This document shows positions 1,466 to 64,000 of a DNA stretch of 64,000 nucleotides, piece by piece. A program made the position numbers and the translations under genes. How positions within the stretch are numbered: the first letter of the stretch is position 1; each line of letters opens with the position of its first letter. A model generated the notes under the pieces. It was not told where the DNA came from and made no database searches. It worked only from the letters and a program-made list of their open reading frames with translations. Source of the stretch: Candidatus Aquidulcis sp. (lineage in GTDB: Bacteria > Chloroflexota > Limnocylindria > Limnocylindrales > Limnocylindraceae); assembly GCA_009919005.1 (NCBI GenBank), contig RGCW01000001.1, positions 13,591 to 77,590 on the forward strand, given 5' to 3'.

Positions 1466-3025
1466 TTAATACCCGAACGATCCCGCGAGACTTTGAATGA
1501 TCAATATTGCGGCACCCGCACCCAAGAAGAGGTTCAGCAACATGAAACGCCGCCACGCTGCGCGTGCGGCCTGATGTGTCGCCGGTCCGAGCAGAAGCGG
1601 GAGGAGCGAGATCACGCTCGCGACGGGCAGCAGAGCACCGAGGCGCTGCAGCCACTCTCCTTGCACCAGCAGCAGGAGCCCGGCTACCCCATACAACGAC
1701 GCGGCGAACCAGCCGCCACCCCGAACACCGAAGAGGGTGCCGACCGTCGCGATCCCGCTGTGGCGATCGGCATCAACATCTTGGAGCGCCCCAACAACGT
1801 GACTGGCCATATTCCAGAGGAGAAACGCGGTAAGCGGTGCGACCCACGCCGCCTGGATCGATCCGCCGAGCATCAACCCGGCGAGCGCAGGGAGCACAAA
1901 GTGTGTTGCCGAAATCACCGAGTCAAGAATCGGAATGGCTCGGGCACGCACGAACCATGGTGCGCTGTAGATGGTGGCTGAACCAATTGCGAGGAGGCAG
2001 AAGAGCGGCACGATGATCTGTTCGGTGAGCAGGAAGATCAGCGCTGAGAGCGCGCTGAAGAGAAGGGTCGTCCGCAGCGCAGGGAGATCTCGTTGCTGAA
2101 GAAGCGCACCTTCGGCGCCACCCTTCCGAGGATTGTGTCGATCCGTCTCCAGATCGTAGAGATCGTTGATTCCATAGAGGAATGCGTTATACGCCACCCC
2201 CCACCAGAGGAGCAGCGGGAGGAACCATGTACCAACCGACTCGCCAGCTCCCGCAGCGAGCGCGCCACCTGCAAACGGGAGTGCTGTATTGATCCAGGAG
2301 ACCGGTCGAGAGGAGAGGAAGATGCGCCACCAGGTTCCACCACCGCGAGATATTGACGACGTGAGCTGGATGGCAACAAGCGCGAACGCAGCCGCGTAGA
2401 AGATGTCCTCGATCGGCGCAATGCCAACCGCTACCCCTGAGCGCGGCTCAGACGCGTAGTGAAAGAGGCCAACGGCGCACATGAGGTTGTCAAAGATGAC
2501 CGTCAGCACAAGGAAGATTGCAAGGCTCCGCCGTGCGGAACGCTGGTTGGCCAGCAGCGGCGCGGTAAGTACGAGGGCCCCGACTCCCATGCCCGCTGAC
2601 ACCGCCGTGTATTCACCGCCAACCTGGGCACCAGCGATGAGGGCCATCGTAACGCCCATGGCACCCACCGCACTTATGACCACCCGAGGCGAAAGGGGCG
2701 CGGACGAAGCACGATCTTGCTTCGATGCAAGACTCATCAGCACGCAGACAAGTGACGATAGCGCGGCCAAGAGCACGATCTCTTCAACTGGCAGCCCTGT
2801 GCCGAGCGCTCCGTGTCCCGGGAGCATGAGCACGGTTGAGGTAAGCGGAGTTCCAAACCAACCGCGCCAGATTCCAATCGCATCGACCGTGAGAAAGATC
2901 ACGGTGGTGCACGCTACGGTAGGAGCGAGAACCTCACGCCGTACCGGAAGGGAGAATCGATGTACAAGTCCTCGTATGCCGAACAACGAGACGGCGATGA
3001 CCGCGAGATAGATGAGTCCGGTCAT
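1466..3025 (-). CDS. Tri-domain carotenoid enzyme: two lycopene-cyclase domains (CrtYc/Yd or CrtYe/Yf-like) fused to a UbiA-family prenyltransferase (lycopene elongase CrtEb-like)
   Basis: Polytopic membrane protein. Two N-terminal repeats of about 110 aa each carry the P-x-E-(E/D) cyclase-domain motif: GIWRGWFG...GLPVEEIVLL and FDNLMCAVGLFHY...APIEDIFYAAAF. The C-terminal roughly 285 aa has the UbiA Asp-rich motif NAFLYGINDLYDLETDRHNPRKGG and a second motif QDVDADRHSG. The track starts at GTG 3043; ATG at 3025 (MTGLIYL) overlaps the upstream stop as ATGA. Confidence 0.6.
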   Translation of the reverse strand: MTGLIYLAVIAVSLFGIRGLVHRFSLPVRREVLAPTVACTTVIFLTVDAIGIWRGWFGTPLTSTVLMLPGHGALGTGLPVEEIVLLAALSSLVCVLMSLASKQDRASSAPLSPRVVISAVGAMGVTMALIAGAQVGGEYTAVSAGMGVGALVLTAPLLANQRSARRSLAIFLVLTVIFDNLMCAVGLFHYASEPRSGVAVGIAPIEDIFYAAAFALVAIQLTSSISRGGGTWWRIFLSSRPVSWINTALPFAGGALAAGAGESVGTWFLPLLLWWGVAYNAFLYGINDLYDLETDRHNPRKGGAEGALLQQRDLPALRTTLLFSALSALIFLLTEQIIVPLFCLLAIGSATIYSAPWFVRARAIPILDSVISATHFVLPALAGLMLGGSIQAAWVAPLTAFLLWNMASHVVGALQDVDADRHSGIATVGTLFGVRGGGWFAASLYGVAGLLLLVQGEWLQRLGALLPVASVISLLPLLLGPATHQAARAAWRRFMLLNLFLGAGAAILIIQSLAGSFGY

Positions 3026-3681
3026 CGATATCGTGCACTCCACCGGAAGGCCAGAAGTGAGATCAGGGCAAGCGACGCACAGAAGAGGATCGCAGCCAGA
3101 ATCCAGAATCGCTCGGGATAGAGTTGCACGAGGCGATCGGTTGCAGGATTAAATGTCCACGTGCCATCGGCGAAGAAGAGGCGATGAAAGAAAGTGAACG
3201 TGGCGTCAAACGCCAGCGCAAACGCCGCGGCCGCCGCGAGCGCACCCCCTGCGATAAGTCGCCCTCCATCTCGGGCGGCGACGCGTAACCACGAAGCCCG
3301 ACGCCACCCCGCCAAGCACAAGAGAACCAGCCCACACACGCCCGCGATGAGCACTGTTCGCAGCAGGGCACCAACATCGACAAGATGTGCTCGCTCGCTT
3401 GCAGAGAGGAGCGGCGCGCCGTTCATCGGCACCCCAAACGCACCCGCCGCGAGTAGGTCTCCTACCAACGCGTCTGAAAGCTGCTCAGCCACCTCTGGCG
3501 CAACGCCAAGTGCCACTGGGGCACCACTGAGCCTCAACAGCAGGTGCACAGCTGGAGGCGTCAGGAATAGCGCCGTCGCGGTCGCGATCATCAGTGCGGT
3601 GGCGGCGAGCGCCAGAACCACCCGCCGCAGGAGACGGCGGAGGGGCTTCACGTGTCGGCGAGCACCTGCCCCTGCTCCCAC
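3022..3681 (-). CDS. DUF1461/TIGR01906-family integral membrane protein (Lit-like)
   Basis: 219 aa, several TM segments. C-terminal FHRLFFADGTWTFNPATDRLVQLYPERFW block is typical of this family. Stop overlaps the start of the carotenoid fusion gene. Confidence 0.4.
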   Translation of the reverse strand: MGAGAGARRHVKPLRRLLRRVVLALAATALMIATATALFLTPPAVHLLLRLSGAPVALGVAPEVAEQLSDALVGDLLAAGAFGVPMNGAPLLSASERAHLVDVGALLRTVLIAGVCGLVLLCLAGWRRASWLRVAARDGGRLIAGGALAAAAAFALAFDATFTFFHRLFFADGTWTFNPATDRLVQLYPERFWILAAILFCASLALISLLAFRWSARYR

Positions 3682-4040
3682 CAGGAACGGAGGGAGAGCG
3701 GGTCAGGAAGGGGCAGCCCGAGCGTCTGAGCGGTGGCCATTACTGAACCCCGGAACTGCTCCCACGGAGCCGCGGCCAGCACCGCTACCCCACCGAATCC
3801 CGCCTGGGCCAGAAGTTCGTGTTCAGCGGGACCAAAGAAGGCCAGGTTCAAGAGCAGGGCCTCATCGCGCCACTCTGCGACGTCGGCGGTGGTCGCATCG
3901 GTCTGATCGGCGAGCGTTTGGCGACGAGTTGGCGTCTCGGTGCGCTCAAGGAGCAGGCCGGTTGTGAAGATGCCCTGAGCCTCGAGCCGTGCGAGATGCA
4001 CGGGCTCAATCCGAGTAAGTTGCGTGATCGCCGGCATAGA
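3648..4040 (-). CDS. Hypothetical protein, DUF4332-like (helix-hairpin-helix-like)
   Basis: Track ORF is 3648..4121. The internal Met MPAITQLTRIEPVHLARLEAQGIFTTGLLLERTE looks like the likely start, giving 131 aa. Divergent from the rhodopsin gene. Confidence 0.35.
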   Translation of the reverse strand, partial: SMPAITQLTRIEPVHLARLEAQGIFTTGLLLERTETPTRRQTLADQTDATTADVAEWRDEALLLNLAFFGPAEHELLAQAGFGGVAVLAAAPWEQFRGSVMATAQTLGLPLPDPLSLRSWWEQGQVLADT

Positions 4041-4099: not shown

Positions 4100-4120
4100 T
4101 GTTACATATTGTCTGTAACA
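4100..4120. promoter_or_regulatory. Perfect palindrome TGTTACA-N7-TGTAACA in the divergent promoter region upstream of the rhodopsin gene
   Basis: tGTTACAtattgtcTGTAACa read directly from the sequence; the two 7-bp arms are reverse complements. It lies in an AT-rich intergenic stretch between the DUF4332 gene and the rhodopsin gene and overlaps sequences resembling a -35 (TTGTTACA) and a -10 (TAACAAT) element. Confidence 0.3.
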
Positions 4121-4220
4121 ATAGCGAAATGTTGCGAGACCTTATCTCTCCGCTGCGATTCTGGGATACTTATCGACAGCGATCCGAGGAGGTCGCAGAA
4201 GAACATAGGGAGGTCCATTG

Positions 4221-4967
4221 ATGAGTCCACAGGACGCATATCAATTGGTCTATAACTTCATGTCCCTCGCGATTGCCGCGATGGGATCGAGCTTCTTCTT
4301 CTTCGTCTCCGCTCGCGGAGCTCTGAAGGAGGGGAACCGGATGGCGGTCACGCTGTCGGCCACAGTTGTGCTGATTGCGTTGTACCACTACGTCCGAATC
4401 TTCGACTCGTGGGTAGCCTTTGGCACCTCGGGCGGAGCTGTTCCGTTTAACGAGGCCTACCGATACGTGGACTGGCTCCTGACGGTGCCACTCCTTGTTG
4501 CTGAGTTGGTGCTCGTACTCAAGCTTGACAAGAAGCTGGAGAGCACGCTGCTCAAGCGAAACGTGCTCTACGCGTTCTTGATGATCGCAACGGGCTATGT
4601 CGGCGAGATGACGAACATCACCTCGGTTGACCTTGCTTCCCCGCGAACCATCTGGGGCGCTATCAGCTCGGTCTTCTTTGTCCTAATCCTCCGCGACCTG
4701 TTCGGCGGCATTGATGCCTCGATCAAGAAGCAGAGCAAGGACATCCAGGGGATCTTCAAGATCCTTCGCGTCGTACTGATTGCGACGTGGGGCGTCTACC
4801 CGATCGCCTATCTGCTCCCAGCCGTTGCCGGCAACCTTGGCCTCACCGCCCAGGACGGCCTCGTGCTGAAGCAGGTCGGATACACGATCGCCGACATCCT
4901 GGCCAAGCCGGGCTACGGTCTCCTCATCTGGAAGATCGCAACCCTGAAGAACGGTTCTTCGAAGTAA
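4221..4967 (+). CDS. Microbial (type I) rhodopsin, proteorhodopsin/xanthorhodopsin/actinorhodopsin-clade light-driven proton pump
   Basis: 248 aa, 7 TM. Helix [19 protein letters not shown] is almost identical to proteorhodopsin [16 protein letters not shown] and gives a D/T/E motif. Helix B His is present (LYHYV). Helix [15 protein letters not shown] supplies the retinal Schiff-base Lys. Leu occupies the PR-105 tuning position. RBS GGGAGG lies 7 nt upstream of ATG 4221. The track starts at TTG 4218. Confidence 0.92.
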
Positions 4968-12895: not shown

Positions 12896-13834
12896 TTAGG
12901 CTCGGGGGTGCGACTTTCGATAGGCGTCTCGCACGTGGCTGCCGAGAAGATGTGTGTACAACTGCGTCGTGGCAATGTCCGCGTGTCCGAGCAGCTCCTG
13001 GACGACGCGAAGGTCGGCGCCCCCGTCGAGGAGGTGGGTCGCGAAGGAGTGACGCAGGGTGTGGGGATGGATTTCGCGTCCAAGCTGTGCCGCGCTGGCC
13101 GCGATCCGTATCGCCGCCCACGCTGATTCTCGTCGCAGGCGAACTCCACCCCGCGACAACAGTAGTGCGTTGGGCTCAGGGTCAGAACCACTAGAGCGAC
13201 CTACGGAGTTAAGGTGAATCGCTCGCCACCCAGACAGGTAAGACTTGATGGCATCAATCGCCGGTTCACCGATTGGAACAATCCGCTCACGCCGTCCCTT
13301 TCCGTATAGGCGAACCGAACCCTCAACGAGGTCAACAGAATCAAGGTCCAACGCCACGATCTCGCTCACTCTGCCGCCAGATCCGTATAGCAACTCGCCG
13401 AGCGCACGGTTGCGGAACGCGTTCGCTCGGGAGAGTTCTTGAGCGTCAGTTGGCGTTCCGAGAGCCGCTAGAAGTTGATCAACCTCGTTGATGCCCAGCA
13501 CACTTGGGAGAGTGCGACGCGCACGGGGTAGATCAATCTCGTCACTGATTGATCGCCCCACGATCCCTTCACCCTCGGCGAACCGGTAGAGAACGCGTAG
13601 CGCCGCGGCTCGCCGTCGCATCGTCGAGAGTGCGATTCCAGGTTTCGCGATCCACGCCTGCGCCGCCTTCGCGGAACTCTTCCAGGTTCCGTCTGTACCG
13701 AGAGATTCTGCAAACGAGGTGTAGTCCCCTCGATAGGCTGCGAGTGTTCTCGGTGAGAGATTGCGTTCGACGCCAAGGTAGAGAAGGCACGCGTCGATGA
13801 GGCGCTCTACCTCGCTGCGTGCGGCGTTCGCCAT
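12896..13834 (-). CDS. xerD: Tyrosine recombinase XerD
   Basis: 312 aa. C-terminal HTLRHSFATHLLDGGADLRVVQELLGHADIATTQLYTHL with the R..H..R..Y catalytic residues. Confidence 0.9.
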   Translation of the reverse strand: MANAARSEVERLIDACLLYLGVERNLSPRTLAAYRGDYTSFAESLGTDGTWKSSAKAAQAWIAKPGIALSTMRRRAAALRVLYRFAEGEGIVGRSISDEIDLPRARRTLPSVLGINEVDQLLAALGTPTDAQELSRANAFRNRALGELLYGSGGRVSEIVALDLDSVDLVEGSVRLYGKGRRERIVPIGEPAIDAIKSYLSGWRAIHLNSVGRSSGSDPEPNALLLSRGGVRLRRESAWAAIRIAASAAQLGREIHPHTLRHSFATHLLDGGADLRVVQELLGHADIATTQLYTHLLGSHVRDAYRKSHPRA

Positions 13835-61988: not shown

Positions 61989-62927
61989 CTAGGAGCCGAT
62001 CGGGTGCCATACCGTCTTCATCTCAAGGAAGGCGGTGATGCCGTCGATCCGTTCGCCCCGCTCACCATCAAAGGCATCGGCGCGATCTTTCACTCCATGC
62101 GGGCGACGCGCGACTCGGGCGACGTGCTCAGCAGCACCCTGCTCCGCCTCAACGAGAAGTTCATCGGGGCAGCCCCACAGGTCGAACCCATCAATGTCCG
62201 CATGGCGCACGAGATGCGGCAGTAGCTCGGCGCGGCGCGCCGTAATGATGTTCACGACTCCCGCTGGAACGTCACTGACCGCAAGCGTCTCGGCCAGAGT
62301 GACGGCGGGTAGTGGTGCCGATTCACTCGCAAGGACGATCGCGACATTGCCACCTGCCAGGATTCCGCCAAGGCGCGAGACGAGTCCCAGCAGTGGCGAG
62401 TGCTCTGGTGCCATACACGCAATCACGCCCGTCGGCTCTGGCAAGGTGAAGACAAAGTGCGACGAGGCAACCGGATTGGTGCCTCCCAATACGGCGGAGA
62501 GTTTGTCGGGCCAGCCCGCGAACCACACCATGCGGTCGATGGCCGCTGCAACCTCCGCCGTCGCGTCCGACTTTGAGCTCCCGTGGTTGATGAGGTCATC
62601 GCGGAACTGCGCAGCGCGGCCCTCCATTAGTTCCGCAACTCGATACAAGATCTGACCCCGGACCATTGCGGTTTTTGCGGCCCAAGGTTCGGCGGCACCA
62701 CGAGCGACTCGGACCGCCTCACGTAGGTCCTTACGCGATCCACCAGCGATATTGGCGACGCCACCCTTCGCAAGTTGAACTTCGCGACTACGCCCCGACT
62801 CGCTTCGGGGAAATCCCCCGCCGATGAAGAGCTTTGCCGTGCGGCGAACCTCGATTCGCGGAGCCCCCTCGTTATCGATGGACAGCGGAAGGTTGAGTTT
62901 CTCGGAGCGCTTGGACTTCTTCCCCAT
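61989..62927 (-). CDS. Truncated aldehyde-dehydrogenase-like protein (N-terminal and degenerate NAD-binding regions only)
   Basis: 312 aa. KLFIGGGF and an ALDH-like N-terminal region are present. The PWNFP motif is degenerate (PEHSPLLG), and ELGGK and the catalytic Cys loop are absent. 2-nt gap to the upstream full ALDH gene. Confidence 0.55.
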   Translation of the reverse strand: MGKKSKRSEKLNLPLSIDNEGAPRIEVRRTAKLFIGGGFPRSESGRSREVQLAKGGVANIAGGSRKDLREAVRVARGAAEPWAAKTAMVRGQILYRVAELMEGRAAQFRDDLINHGSSKSDATAEVAAAIDRMVWFAGWPDKLSAVLGGTNPVASSHFVFTLPEPTGVIACMAPEHSPLLGLVSRLGGILAGGNVAIVLASESAPLPAVTLAETLAVSDVPAGVVNIITARRAELLPHLVRHADIDGFDLWGCPDELLVEAEQGAAEHVARVARRPHGVKDRADAFDGERGERIDGITAFLEMKTVWHPIGS

Positions 62928-62929
62928 GC

Positions 62930-64000
62930 TTATGAACTCCGCAGGTATGCGTGAAGGCCTTGCATGCCACCCTCACGTCCATAACCCGACTCTTTATAGC
63001 CGCCGAACGGCGCGGTTGGATCAAAGCGATTGAAGGTGTTGGCCCACACAACACCAGCCTTAACGGCGTTTGCGACCTGCAGGATGCGGCTCCCCTTCTC
63101 CGTCCAAATGCCAGCGGAGAGGCCATAGGCCGTGTTGTTCGCCTTTTCGATCGCTTCGGCAACGGTGCGGAAGGTGATGGTGGCGAGGACGGGCCCAAAG
63201 ATCTCTTCGCGCGCGATGCGATGGCTCTGCGCCACGTTGGTAAAGAGCGTTGGTCGGAAGAACCAGCCGCGCGTCGGCAGGTCGCATGCGGGCTGCCAAA
63301 GCTGTGCCCCCTCGGCCACGCCGCTTGCTACGAGTTCGCCGATCGTCTCCATCTGTGCCTTTGAGTTGATCGCTCCGATGTCGGTGTTCTTATCCATCGG
63401 GTCGCCGATTCGTAGCATCGACATCCGATCACGCAATCGGGCCAAGAACTCCTCAGCGATCGACTCTTGAACGAGGAGGCGGCTCCCCGCACAGCAGACC
63501 TCGCCCTGGTTGAAGAAGATGCCATTGACGACGCCCTCAACAGCCTGGTCAAGCGCCGCATCATCAAAGACGATGTTTGCCGCCTTTCCACCGAGCTCCA
63601 GGGTGAGCCCTTTCCCGTGGCCTGCGATCCCCTTGGCAATAGTGACGCCGACCGAGGTGCTCCCTGTAAAGGCGACCTTCGCAACACGGGGGTCTGTGAC
63701 GATAGACATGCCGGTACTGCCAGGGCCAGTGACGATATTGACAACGCCATCTGGAAGTTCCGCTTGCCGACAAACATCGGCGAAGAGGAGGGCCGTGAGT
63801 GGCGTTGTGGAGGCTGGCTTAAGGACTACGGTGTTACCTGCCGCCAGCGCGGGAGCAATCTTCCACGCCAGCATGAGGAGGGGGAAGTTCCAAGGGATGA
63901 CCTGACCGACAACTCCATGCGCCTCGGGTCGGCGTCCCGGAACCGCATACTCCAACTTGTCGGCCCACCCTGCGTAGTACCAGAAGTGCGCCGCTGCAAG
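62930..64000 (-). CDS. Aldehyde dehydrogenase (N-terminus beyond the window end)
   Basis: VIPWNFP, ELGGK, EVCCAGSR (catalytic Cys) and GGYKESGYGRE motifs. The reading frame continues past 64000. Confidence 0.85.
   Translation of the reverse strand, partial: LAAAHFWYYAGWADKLEYAVPGRRPEAHGVVGQVIPWNFPLLMLAWKIAPALAAGNTVVLKPASTTPLTALLFADVCRQAELPDGVVNIVTGPGSTGMSIVTDPRVAKVAFTGSTSVGVTIAKGIAGHGKGLTLELGGKAANIVFDDAALDQAVEGVVNGIFFNQGEVCCAGSRLLVQESIAEEFLARLRDRMSMLRIGDPMDKNTDIGAINSKAQMETIGELVASGVAEGAQLWQPACDLPTRGWFFRPTLFTNVAQSHRIAREEIFGPVLATITFRTVAEAIEKANNTAYGLSAGIWTEKGSRILQVANAVKAGVVWANTFNRFDPTAPFGGYKESGYGREGGMQGLHAYLRSS

Follow-up and report, generated by a model that had tools for sequence, protein, structure and literature searches.

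Carotenoids with 50 carbon atoms (C50) are known mainly from Actinobacteria and haloarchaea. In the actinobacterial systems, two small cyclase subunits and a UbiA-type lycopene elongase are encoded by separate genes, as in the case of CrtYe, CrtYf and CrtEb of Corynebacterium glutamicum (decaprenoxanthin) and CrtYg, CrtYh and CrtE2 of Micrococcus (sarcinaxanthin). A two-part fusion, LbtBC, which joins the second C50 β-cyclase subunit to the elongase and leaves LbtA separate, has been described in Dietzia sp. CQ4 (PMC6669644); according to the same study, the two C50 cyclase monomers fall into two separate groups. Here we describe a gene that very probably combines counterparts of all three proteins in a single polypeptide and very probably arose by fusion of three genes. 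It is located in a 64,000-nt stretch of DNA (the window) from Candidatus Aquidulcis sp. (Chloroflexota; assembly GCA_009919005.1, contig RGCW01000001.1, positions 13,591 to 77,590), close to a gene for a rhodopsin of the xanthorhodopsin family. A previous reading of the window, made from the sequence alone, had called this architecture unusual. The searchable literature covers separate crtYe, crtYf and crtEb genes and the two-part LbtBC; our literature search found no description of a three-part fusion, no report of C50 carotenoids in Chloroflexota and nothing relevant on retinal genes of Limnocylindria.

The longest open reading frame (ORF) listed for the fusion spans positions 1466..3043 of the minus strand and encodes 525 amino acids (aa). 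However, an ATG codon at 3025-3023 overlaps the TGA stop codon (3024-3022) of the upstream gene as ATGA, and the fusion orthologs begin at the equivalent methionine. The gene was therefore delimited as 1466..3025 (519 aa; Table 1), the span proposed in the sequence-only reading, with 3025 a better start than 3043. The peptides quoted in that reading (LPVEEIVLL, APIEDIFYAAAF, NDLYDLETD and DVDADR) were all found in the translation, and the rhodopsin gene, which it had placed about 1.2 kb away, starts 1193 nt from the start of the fusion gene.

A search of 5.8 billion proteins identified 57 full-length relatives of the fusion (512-525 aa, 46-98% identity) originating from independent metagenomes and metagenome-assembled genomes (MAGs). 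Scans of genomes and metagenomes yielded 32 fetched loci in which the three modules are encoded in one unbroken frame. From N to C terminus, the modules follow the order that the separate genes have in other bacteria, and the motifs quoted above are invariant in more than 50 orthologs of the fusion. Among close orthologs, the pairwise ratio of nonsynonymous to synonymous substitution rates (dN/dS) was 0.05-0.3 in each of the cyclase modules N1 and N2 and in the UbiA module, and higher in the linker between N1 and N2 (typically 0.1-0.4, up to 0.9). The proportion of columns conserved in at least 90% of the sequences was 36% in N1, 25% in N2 and 41% in the UbiA module, compared to 3% in the linker. 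In an alignment of 25 sequences (43-68% identity), the invariant residues included (i) D48, P79, E81 and E82 of repeat 1 (module N1), (ii) D179, P204, E206 and D207 of repeat 2 (module N2), and (iii) N287, D288, D291, D295, D416 and D420 of the UbiA module. Both cyclase halves thus carry a PxE(E/D) motif, P79-V-E81-E82 in N1 and P204-I-E206-D207 in N2. Purifying selection acts on all three modules, and the fusion is a conserved, selected multi-domain protein, not an artefact of assembly or frameshift. In public databases, its orthologs are annotated as "UbiA family prenyltransferase", "lycopene cyclase domain-containing protein", "4-hydroxybenzoate polyprenyltransferase" or "hypothetical protein".

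The C-terminal part of about 285 aa had been read as a UbiA prenyltransferase, and this assignment was upheld for the last 287 aa. The Pfam UbiA profile (PF01040) scored 65.4 bits (cutoff 34.2) over aa 255-504 of the 525-aa ORF, covering profile positions 2-248 of 250, both Asp-rich motifs are invariant, and the AlphaFold2 (AF2) model shows the UbiA fold. In Foldseek searches, this model matched structures 4tq4, 6m31 and 4od5 with a probability of 1.00 and E values of 5e-6 to 4e-4 (4.7e-6 for 4tq4), the TM-scores for the three UbiA structures being 0.6-0.66 when normalised by target length. A sequence search of the PDB identified only chlorophyll synthase, at 26.7 bits.

The proposed similarity to CrtEb was also upheld. 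The top NCBIfam model for the UbiA module was NF009608/PRK13105, whose score of 215.4 bits is about two-fold above those of the next models (111.5 and 109.9 bits), while models of heme, quinone, chlorophyll and lipid prenyltransferases reached 41 bits at most. The elongases of two C50 clusters, L008 and L009, match NF009608 at 438 and 404 bits. Among named proteins, those nearest to this part of the fusion (40-45% identity) comprise prenyltransferases with lengths of 282-300 aa, encoded by Microbacterium, Nesterenkonia, Cellulosimicrobium, Arthrobacter and others, as well as 388-aa proteins of Mycetocola. Two of the relative loci, L008 (MarR | NUDIX (idi)-crtE-crtB-crtI-108 aa-101 aa(Lycopene_cyc)-UbiA) and L009 (crtE-crtB-crtI-112 aa-388 aa fusion), are canonical C50 carotenoid clusters, and crtI, crtB or crtE was found directly upstream in most of about 50 further relative loci. 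On the basis of the NF009608 match and the C50-cluster contexts of its nearest relatives, the UbiA module was classified as a divergent relative of the CrtEb-type elongases. An elongase-type UbiA gene directly following two cyclase subunit genes, an order observed in L008, L013, L014 and L096, corresponds to the covalent arrangement of the fusion.

The two N-terminal repeats showed different affinities. Repeat 2 shares 46% identity (BLASTP, E 1e-13) with the 101-aa second cyclase subunit of Microbacterium, and the N2 profile scored 59 bits on this second subunit and 3 bits on the first. The N1 profile gave the opposite result: 32 bits over the full length of the 108-aa first subunit of Microbacterium (E 6e-12, single comparison) and 3 bits on the second. 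N2 together with the UbiA module is collinear with the 388-aa LbtBC-like protein of Mycetocola (40% identity over 379 aa, E 1e-59), including the junction SSRPVSWINTA. Repeat 1 also matched (tblastn, 35% identity, E 1e-6) a 117-aa ORF of locus L010, which precedes a protein composed of Lycopene_cyc, UbiA and family 2 glycosyltransferase (GT2) domains.

When 1.84 billion representative proteins were searched exhaustively with HMMER, the profile of repeat 1 retrieved only 25 of them at E < 1e-3. These comprise the fusion family and about ten proteins of ~100-160 aa containing D..G..GxF and PxEEP. In the two contexts inspected, the genes of such standalone N1 homologs come first, followed by a Lycopene_cyc gene (90-97 aa) and then by a UbiA gene whose product starts with ASRPVSWINTALPF...YGVNDLFDY; the Chloroflexota MAG locus L096 has the same order of first subunit, Lycopene_cyc and UbiA. 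Because of the profile specificity and the gene order around the standalone homologs, repeat 1 was assigned as the counterpart of the first subunit and repeat 2 as that of the second. With these assignments, the predicted domain order of the fusion is the gene order of C50 clusters. The homology of repeat 1 to the first subunits is supported by transitive profile evidence, along with arguments from motif, topology and gene order.

A separate observation from the exhaustive search concerns P0221, a 358-aa protein from high-GC metagenomic DNA, in which a first subunit, a second subunit and the start of a UbiA domain (SRPISWVNTALPF) occur in one ORF. These modules are interspersed with Arg/Ala-rich stretches that appear to be out of frame, and the sequence represents either a frameshifted cluster or an independent fusion.

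According to the AF2 model of the N-terminal 238 aa (predicted local distance difference test score, pLDDT, 84.5; predicted TM-score, pTM, 0.85), this part of the protein forms seven helices in a 3+1+3 arrangement, with the middle (fourth) helix falling in the non-conserved linker. Since the full-length model has a pLDDT of 84.1 and a pTM of 0.85, the predicted packing of the N-terminal part against the UbiA module may be considered confident. A Foldseek search of the PDB with the N-terminal model gave no significant match (best E 0.49). Two-part LbtBC-like proteins, which are common among the relatives of the fusion, have the same junction between N2 and UbiA. The likely history is that an LbtA-type gene joined an LbtBC-type gene and that a new helix was recruited, which preserved the membrane topology. 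We thus picture the protein as a single-chain C50-carotenoid synthase that would have been formed by the fusion of three neighbouring genes of the crtYe-crtYf-crtEb type.

The second distinctive feature of the locus is its rhodopsin gene, which is transcribed divergently. The best solved relatives of the encoded protein are psXR (9wfa, 186 bits), xanthorhodopsin (3ddl, 180 bits), Gloeobacter rhodopsin and RlActR. Its IWG sequence aligns on LWG156 of xanthorhodopsin, and the D-T-E motif and the region of the Schiff-base Lys (aligned to ADVLAKAGYG) also correspond. Judging from the alignment, the glycine at the position of xanthorhodopsin G156 would open the site for the carotenoid ring, and a carotenoid antenna would be permitted in the window rhodopsin. 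Conserved salinixanthin-binding residues were noted in these rhodopsins by Mehrshad et al. 2018 (PMC6169038).

We sorted 95 fetched loci by frame continuity and neighbouring genes; tri-domain loci were considered informative when at least 1.39 kb of upstream sequence was available. A rhodopsin gene on the opposite strand was present in all 26 informative loci, and crt genes were found within 8 kb of the fusion in none of them. In 23 of the 26, the order is that of the window: rhodopsin, then, on the other strand, DUF4332, a Lit-like gene and the fusion. In the remaining three (L011, L038 and L042; fusion proteins 39-43% identical to that of the window), the gap between rhodopsin and fusion measures 117-120 nt and holds no gene, and the genes flanking the pair in L011 also differ from those of the window. 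In contrast, none of approximately 55 loci with unfused or two-part forms contains a rhodopsin gene, and, where the sequence extends far enough, crtI and crtB (and crtE) directly precede these forms in nearly all cases. One further locus, L049, appeared in the tblastn table as a tri-domain locus beside crtI; it was rejected, since its LbtA and LbtBC parts are in different frames. Because of this strict back-to-back pairing away from the crt cluster, the product of the fusion would be synthesised jointly with the rhodopsin system and would probably serve it. Some functional coupling between the fusion and rhodopsin seems reasonably probable.

The three-part fusion is characteristic of the class Limnocylindria of Chloroflexota. 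The 90% cluster that holds the window fusion includes a protein named Candidatus Aquidulcis sp., and relatives with 64-67% identity occur in MAGs of Candidatus Limnocylindrus. Both genera belong to this class, which is the freshwater group SL56 described as rhodopsin-bearing by Mehrshad et al. 2018, in whose supplementary metabolic table carotenoid genes are given for Chloroflexales only and not for SL56/Limnocylindria (PMC6169038). Among the 43 larger ORFs of the 64-kb window, there are no crtE, crtB, crtI, blh, crtD or cruF genes, the rest being housekeeping genes. A crtI-crtB pair is present separately in Ca. Limnocylindrus MAGs, two of which, judged by accession series, also carry the fusion, the CrtI proteins of Ca. 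Limnocylindrus sharing an accession series with it. Since Ca. Limnocylindrus carries crtI-crtB, a supply of lycopene is plausible. The Limnocylindria pair stands alone behind a gene for an IclR-type regulator, with no cyclase gene adjoining. Regulators with the same Pfam signature are encoded divergently upstream of crtI-crtB (L097 8927-12453, and L098) and also near unfused cyclase-elongase genes in L014 (1188-1958) and L015. The IclR-type protein may act as a carotenoid regulator in place of CrtR, the MarR-type protein of Actinobacteria.

The following mechanism can be proposed from the analogy to the Corynebacterium enzymes CrtEb and CrtYe/Yf (Krubasik et al. 2001, as cited in PMC7734400 and PMC12422013). 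With its Mg2+-binding Asp-rich motifs, the UbiA module would attach C5 units derived from dimethylallyl diphosphate to lycopene at its C-2 and C-2' positions, and this elongation would yield an acyclic hydroxylated C45 and then a C50 intermediate of the flavuxanthin type. The two cyclase halves, acting as a pseudo-heterodimer with two PxE(E/D) motifs, would then protonate and cyclise the extended ends, the final product being a cyclic C50 xanthophyll. A cyclic C50 carotenoid is on this analogy the favoured product, with moderate confidence; the type of ring is not predictable from sequence, a caveat that is also made in PMC6669644. The fusion would set a 1:1:1 stoichiometry and could allow the intermediate to be handed between sites within the membrane. 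As regards function, the product would most likely serve as a light-harvesting or photoprotective carotenoid bound to rhodopsin or located in its neighbourhood, and less likely as a ring-bearing precursor in a Blh-independent route to retinal. Rhodopsin-containing freshwater Actinobacteria that lack blh carry crtYe/Yf and crtEb, and a route from C50 carotenoids to retinal has been hypothesised (Nakajima et al. 2020, PMC7734400). The pairing observed in Chloroflexota fits this C50-to-retinal question and does not resolve it.

Taken as a whole, the interpretation of the protein as a single-chain C50-carotenoid synthase derived from three genes and coupled to rhodopsin is in our judgement a fairly probable one. 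It should be noted that several results weigh against it. The sequence-only reading had expected two matches to lycopene-cyclase hidden Markov models. TIGR03462 does align both repeats when they are scanned singly, but both scores are below its cutoff of 39.4 bits: 19.4 bits for repeat 1 alone (E 1.1e-3, full length) and 31-36 bits for repeat 2 (36.1 when scanned alone). The Pfam model Lycopene_cyc (PF18916) gave one match on the whole protein, to repeat 2 only, at 20.6 bits (cutoff 27), and a scan of the isolated repeat 1 from 10 diverse orthologs, with E values up to 10 allowed, gave none. The first small gene of actinobacterial clusters is likewise without a precomputed Pfam match, and with 51.6 and 49.1 bits the first subunits from Actinobacteria exceed the TIGR03462 cutoff. 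When the two repeats were compared with each other using hhalign, the D..G and PxE(E/D) regions were aligned, but the similarity was weak (P = 0.09). BLASTP of N1 versus the first subunit of Microbacterium gave no significant match, probably as a result of the composition correction on transmembrane segments. The UbiA module is 1.6 bits short of the curated equivalog cutoff of NF009608 (217), and orthologs P0050 and P0093 are also below it, at 200.9 and 120.8 bits. Such sub-cutoff family scores mark divergent members, whose specificity may have shifted, and the apparent specificity for C50 over C40 substrates is an argument from association, not from phylogeny. The coupling to rhodopsin has difficulties of its own. 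Rhodopsin is far more conserved than the fusion (identity to the window of 96% versus 67% in L003, 84% versus 47% in L001, and 82% versus 39% in L011), which is not an obvious prediction of a tight physical partnership. The 26 informative loci come mostly from one class, so the adjacency statistic partly reflects shared ancestry. Finally, to our knowledge, no rhodopsin binds a C50 carotenoid, the rings of which bear a bulky C-2 substituent. Nevertheless, the N-terminal repeats were not placed in an unrelated family, nor was the C-terminal domain placed in a non-carotenoid UbiA subfamily in a protein devoid of cyclase matches, the two outcomes named beforehand as contradicting the sequence-only reading.

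The meaning of the adjacency can be viewed in two ways. The fusion may provide the pigment partner of the neighbouring xanthorhodopsin, as a new type of cyclic C50 antenna or as the ring-forming step of a Blh-independent retinal route; we advance this only tentatively, and regard an antenna role of the product specifically as rather doubtful. It is conceivable, and again not probable, that the protein is a C50 synthase whose position beside rhodopsin reflects inherited synteny or shared light regulation, its product being a general membrane photoprotectant or antioxidant. The genes on the GpsA, Der and IspH side and on the MoaB and NrdR side are indeed syntenic between the window and L001 at a fusion identity of 47%, so that the adjacency is in large part inherited, the fusion evolves much faster than rhodopsin, and actinobacterial C50 carotenoids are generally viewed as photoprotective (PMC12422013). 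However, the pair persists in L011, L038 and L042 in the absence of the DUF4332 and Lit-like genes, and in L011, the locus of the three with annotated flanks, within different flanks; the fusion has parted from crtI-crtB, whereas all relatives not linked to rhodopsin remain in crt clusters; and a conserved palindrome lies between the two transcription units. 

Another explanation, which we consider improbable, is that the N-terminal part is a C40 lycopene β-cyclase feeding the synthesis of β-carotene and retinal, and that the elongase draws lycopene into a competing C50 branch, which would put the fusion at a branch point of lycopene use. Fused C40 cyclases are 3+1+3 helix proteins, as is the N-terminal part in the AF2 model, and the genes adjoining rhodopsin in other bacteria are typically those of the retinal pathway. 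No other cyclase was seen in the window or beside the crtI-crtB pair of Limnocylindria. Also compatible with this explanation are the blh-less rhodopsin Actinobacteria with crtYe/Yf and crtEb; the action of C50 cyclases on lycopene itself has been noted to be unsettled (PMC7734400). On the other hand, N1 homologs were found only ahead of a cyclase-domain gene and a CrtEb-type gene, the collinearity of N2-UbiA is with C50 enzymes of the LbtBC type, no blh-like gene is present in the window, and the elongase motifs are as well conserved as those of the cyclase halves. The sub-threshold cyclase scores, and the lower conservation of the N-terminal modules relative to the UbiA module, could also mean that the elongase alone is active and forms an acyclic C50 product of the bacterioruberin or flavuxanthin type, the seven N-terminal helices being a degenerate membrane anchor. 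This is very unlikely, given that D48, P79-x-E81-E82, D179 and P204-x-E206-D207 are invariant in orthologs 43-68% identical to the window protein, and that the dN/dS values of N1 and N2 are as low as those of the UbiA module, while the linker is relaxed. The prospect that the C-terminal domain is a non-carotenoid UbiA enzyme (of quinone, heme O, chlorophyll or lipid metabolism) attached to an unrelated membrane domain, or that the ORF is an artefact, is slighter still, to the point of being negligible. Orthologs are often auto-annotated as "4-hydroxybenzoate polyprenyltransferase" or "hypothetical protein", and sequence comparison with solved structures gives chlorophyll synthase as the nearest, at only 26.7 bits; the quinone, heme and chlorophyll models stay far below the CrtEb-type model (at most 41 versus 215 bits), the protein is collinear with an LbtBC-like one, the 32 independent loci have all modules in one frame, and each module is under purifying selection.

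Table 1. Features of the fusion locus and its divergent rhodopsin gene (window coordinates)
Feature	Position	Strand	Characteristics
Complete fused gene	1466..3025	-	One 519-aa chain: two cyclase halves joined by the linker helix, then UbiA; based on ORF, ATGA overlap, orthologs and AF2 model
Module N1 (aa 1-104)	2714..3025	-	Three transmembrane helices; D48, P79-x-E81-E82; putative counterpart at the CrtYe/LbtA position
Linker (aa 105-137)	2615..2713	-	One extra hydrophobic helix (model H113-132) between the three-helix halves; AF2 model
Module N2 (aa 138-232)	2330..2614	-	Three transmembrane helices; D179, P204-x-E206-D207; putative counterpart at the CrtYf/LbtB position
UbiA module (aa 233-519)	1466..2329	-	N287-D288-xx-D291-xxx-D295, D416-xxx-D420; nearest to CrtEb-type lycopene elongases
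Lit/TIGR01906-family integral membrane protein gene	3022..3681	-	Pfam Lit 67.1 bits; ATGA overlap with the fusion gene
DUF4332 gene	3648..4037	-	Pfam DUF4332 44 bits; opens the putative operon DUF4332, Lit-like, fusion
Inverted repeat TGTTACA-N7-TGTAACA	4100..4120		Divergent intergenic region DUF4332/rhodopsin; candidate operator
Xanthorhodopsin-family proton-pump gene	4218..4967	+	Divergent; D-T-E motif, Gly at the G156 position; Pfam Bac_rhodopsin 134.9 bits

The DUF4332 and Lit-like genes are co-directional with the fusion, and both are missing from the three loci where rhodopsin directly adjoins it; of the rhodopsin-linked loci, 23 keep the Lit-like gene in this place and 3 lack it. The start of the DUF4332 gene is likely the Met codon at ~4037 and not the TTG at 4121, as the orthologs align from aa 25 on. 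Through the ATGA overlap, the Lit-like gene is translationally coupled to the fusion, and one example of a possible role of the DUF4332 and Lit-like products is acyl transfer to a carotenoid glycoside. 

The perfect palindrome between the DUF4332 and rhodopsin genes occurs as a single copy in the window, where 0 copies are expected by chance. Eighteen related loci have it in the same place, the arms being conserved and the 6-nt spacer variable, and more distant Limnocylindrus loci retain the TGTAACAA half-site only. A pattern of this kind is expected of an operator, and the palindrome is a candidate for one that serves both the rhodopsin gene and the operon. Upstream of the Limnocylindria crtI-crtB pair (L097, L098) it was not found, and there is no sign of an operator shared with these genes.

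In the window and its closer relatives, a MoaB-like gene (974-1456) follows the fusion after a 9-nt gap, and in distant Limnocylindrus loci (L001 11545-13903) MoeA and MoaC genes are located between them. Within the cluster, the fusion evolves fastest, although its dN/dS does not exceed 0.3; in conservation, MoaB and DUF4332 are intermediate between it and rhodopsin. Nearly all genes of the window are on the minus strand, rhodopsin being among the very few on the plus strand, and the cumulative GC skew drops monotonically; on account of this strand bias and skew, the window is placed within one replichore. Two genes for XerC/D-type recombinases are present (12896-13834 and 40786-41748). Two neighbouring ORFs on the minus strand (61989-62927 and 62930-63955) both match aldehyde dehydrogenase, the upstream one covering profile positions 125-457 and the downstream one 20-213, an order that is odd for a simple frameshift. 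They may be a truncated paralog beside a gene cut by the end of the window.

A conserved C50-type synthase in Limnocylindria would extend C50 carotenoids to Chloroflexota and to a lineage that ranks among the most abundant freshwater bacterioplankton, and, if the interpretation is correct, rhodopsin and the fusion on a crtI-crtB background would form a compact phototrophy cassette of these bacteria. The pairing bears on the question of which carotenoids serve freshwater xanthorhodopsins and on the source of the chromophore in rhodopsin bacteria that lack blh. A natural three-in-one enzyme would also be a useful part for the engineering of cyclic C50 (and longer) carotenoids, and, as the PDB search with the N-terminal model found no solved relative, the fusion is a target for the first structure of a lycopene-cyclase domain.

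Comparison with the described systems places the fusion closest to the actinobacterial C50 pathways. It has three modules corresponding, in the same order, to CrtYe, CrtYf and CrtEb and to CrtYg, CrtYh and CrtE2, and it shares with these proteins a PxE(E/D) motif per cyclase half and a pair of Asp-rich motifs in the elongase. It differs in uniting the three in a single chain, to which a linker helix is added, in its scores, which are slightly or clearly below the family cutoffs, in its host (Chloroflexota, not Actinobacteria), and in being located apart from crtE, crtB and crtI and paired with rhodopsin. In the case of LbtBC, the junction between N2 and UbiA is common to both proteins. However, the fusion also joins the first subunit, through a non-conserved transmembrane linker, whereas clusters of the LbtBC type keep a separate gene of ~110-125 aa. 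Judged by its modules, the fusion extends the LbtBC architecture and is not a member of it.

The C40 fusion cyclases, namely CrtYc-d of haloarchaea and Sulfolobus and the N-terminal parts of fungal CrtYB/CarRA (cited as fusion-type cyclases in PMC2889829), resemble the predicted architecture of the fusion in having two cyclase domains in one chain with an extra helix, but they act on C40 lycopene and have no UbiA elongase, and the fungal ones are fused to phytoene synthase. Haloarchaeal LyeJ/Lye (bacterioruberin), a lycopene elongase-hydratase, is a UbiA-type elongase acting on lycopene, as the UbiA module is predicted to be, and both occur in rhodopsin-bearing organisms; in the fusion, unlike LyeJ, a cyclase is covalently attached. 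The "prenyltransferase" models NF009516 and NF010119 scored ~110 bits on the UbiA module, half of the CrtEb-type score. Bacterioruberin clusters contain CruF and are not known to include a cyclase.

The closest standalone relatives of N1 are found in unfused or partly fused clusters of Chloroflexota and metagenomes (L096, L014 and L010), with the order first subunit, Lycopene_cyc, UbiA. In L096, L014/L015 and L010, UbiA is instead fused C-terminally to a GT2 glycosyltransferase (701-742 aa) and there is no rhodopsin nearby; crtI and crtB lie directly downstream of UbiA-GT2 in L010 and L096. The L096 cluster (GCA_046352645.1, 2783-13243) also contains a crtD-like gene, a further GT2 gene, a gene for a PlsY-like acyltransferase, and CruF. 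From their gene content, clusters of this type look like pathways that use other fusions to make C50 carotenoids with glycosyl and possibly acyl groups. To the sequence-only reading, the analysis adds a specific identity for repeat 1, the lineage, and the constant presence of xanthorhodopsin beside the fusion, at a distance from the crt genes.

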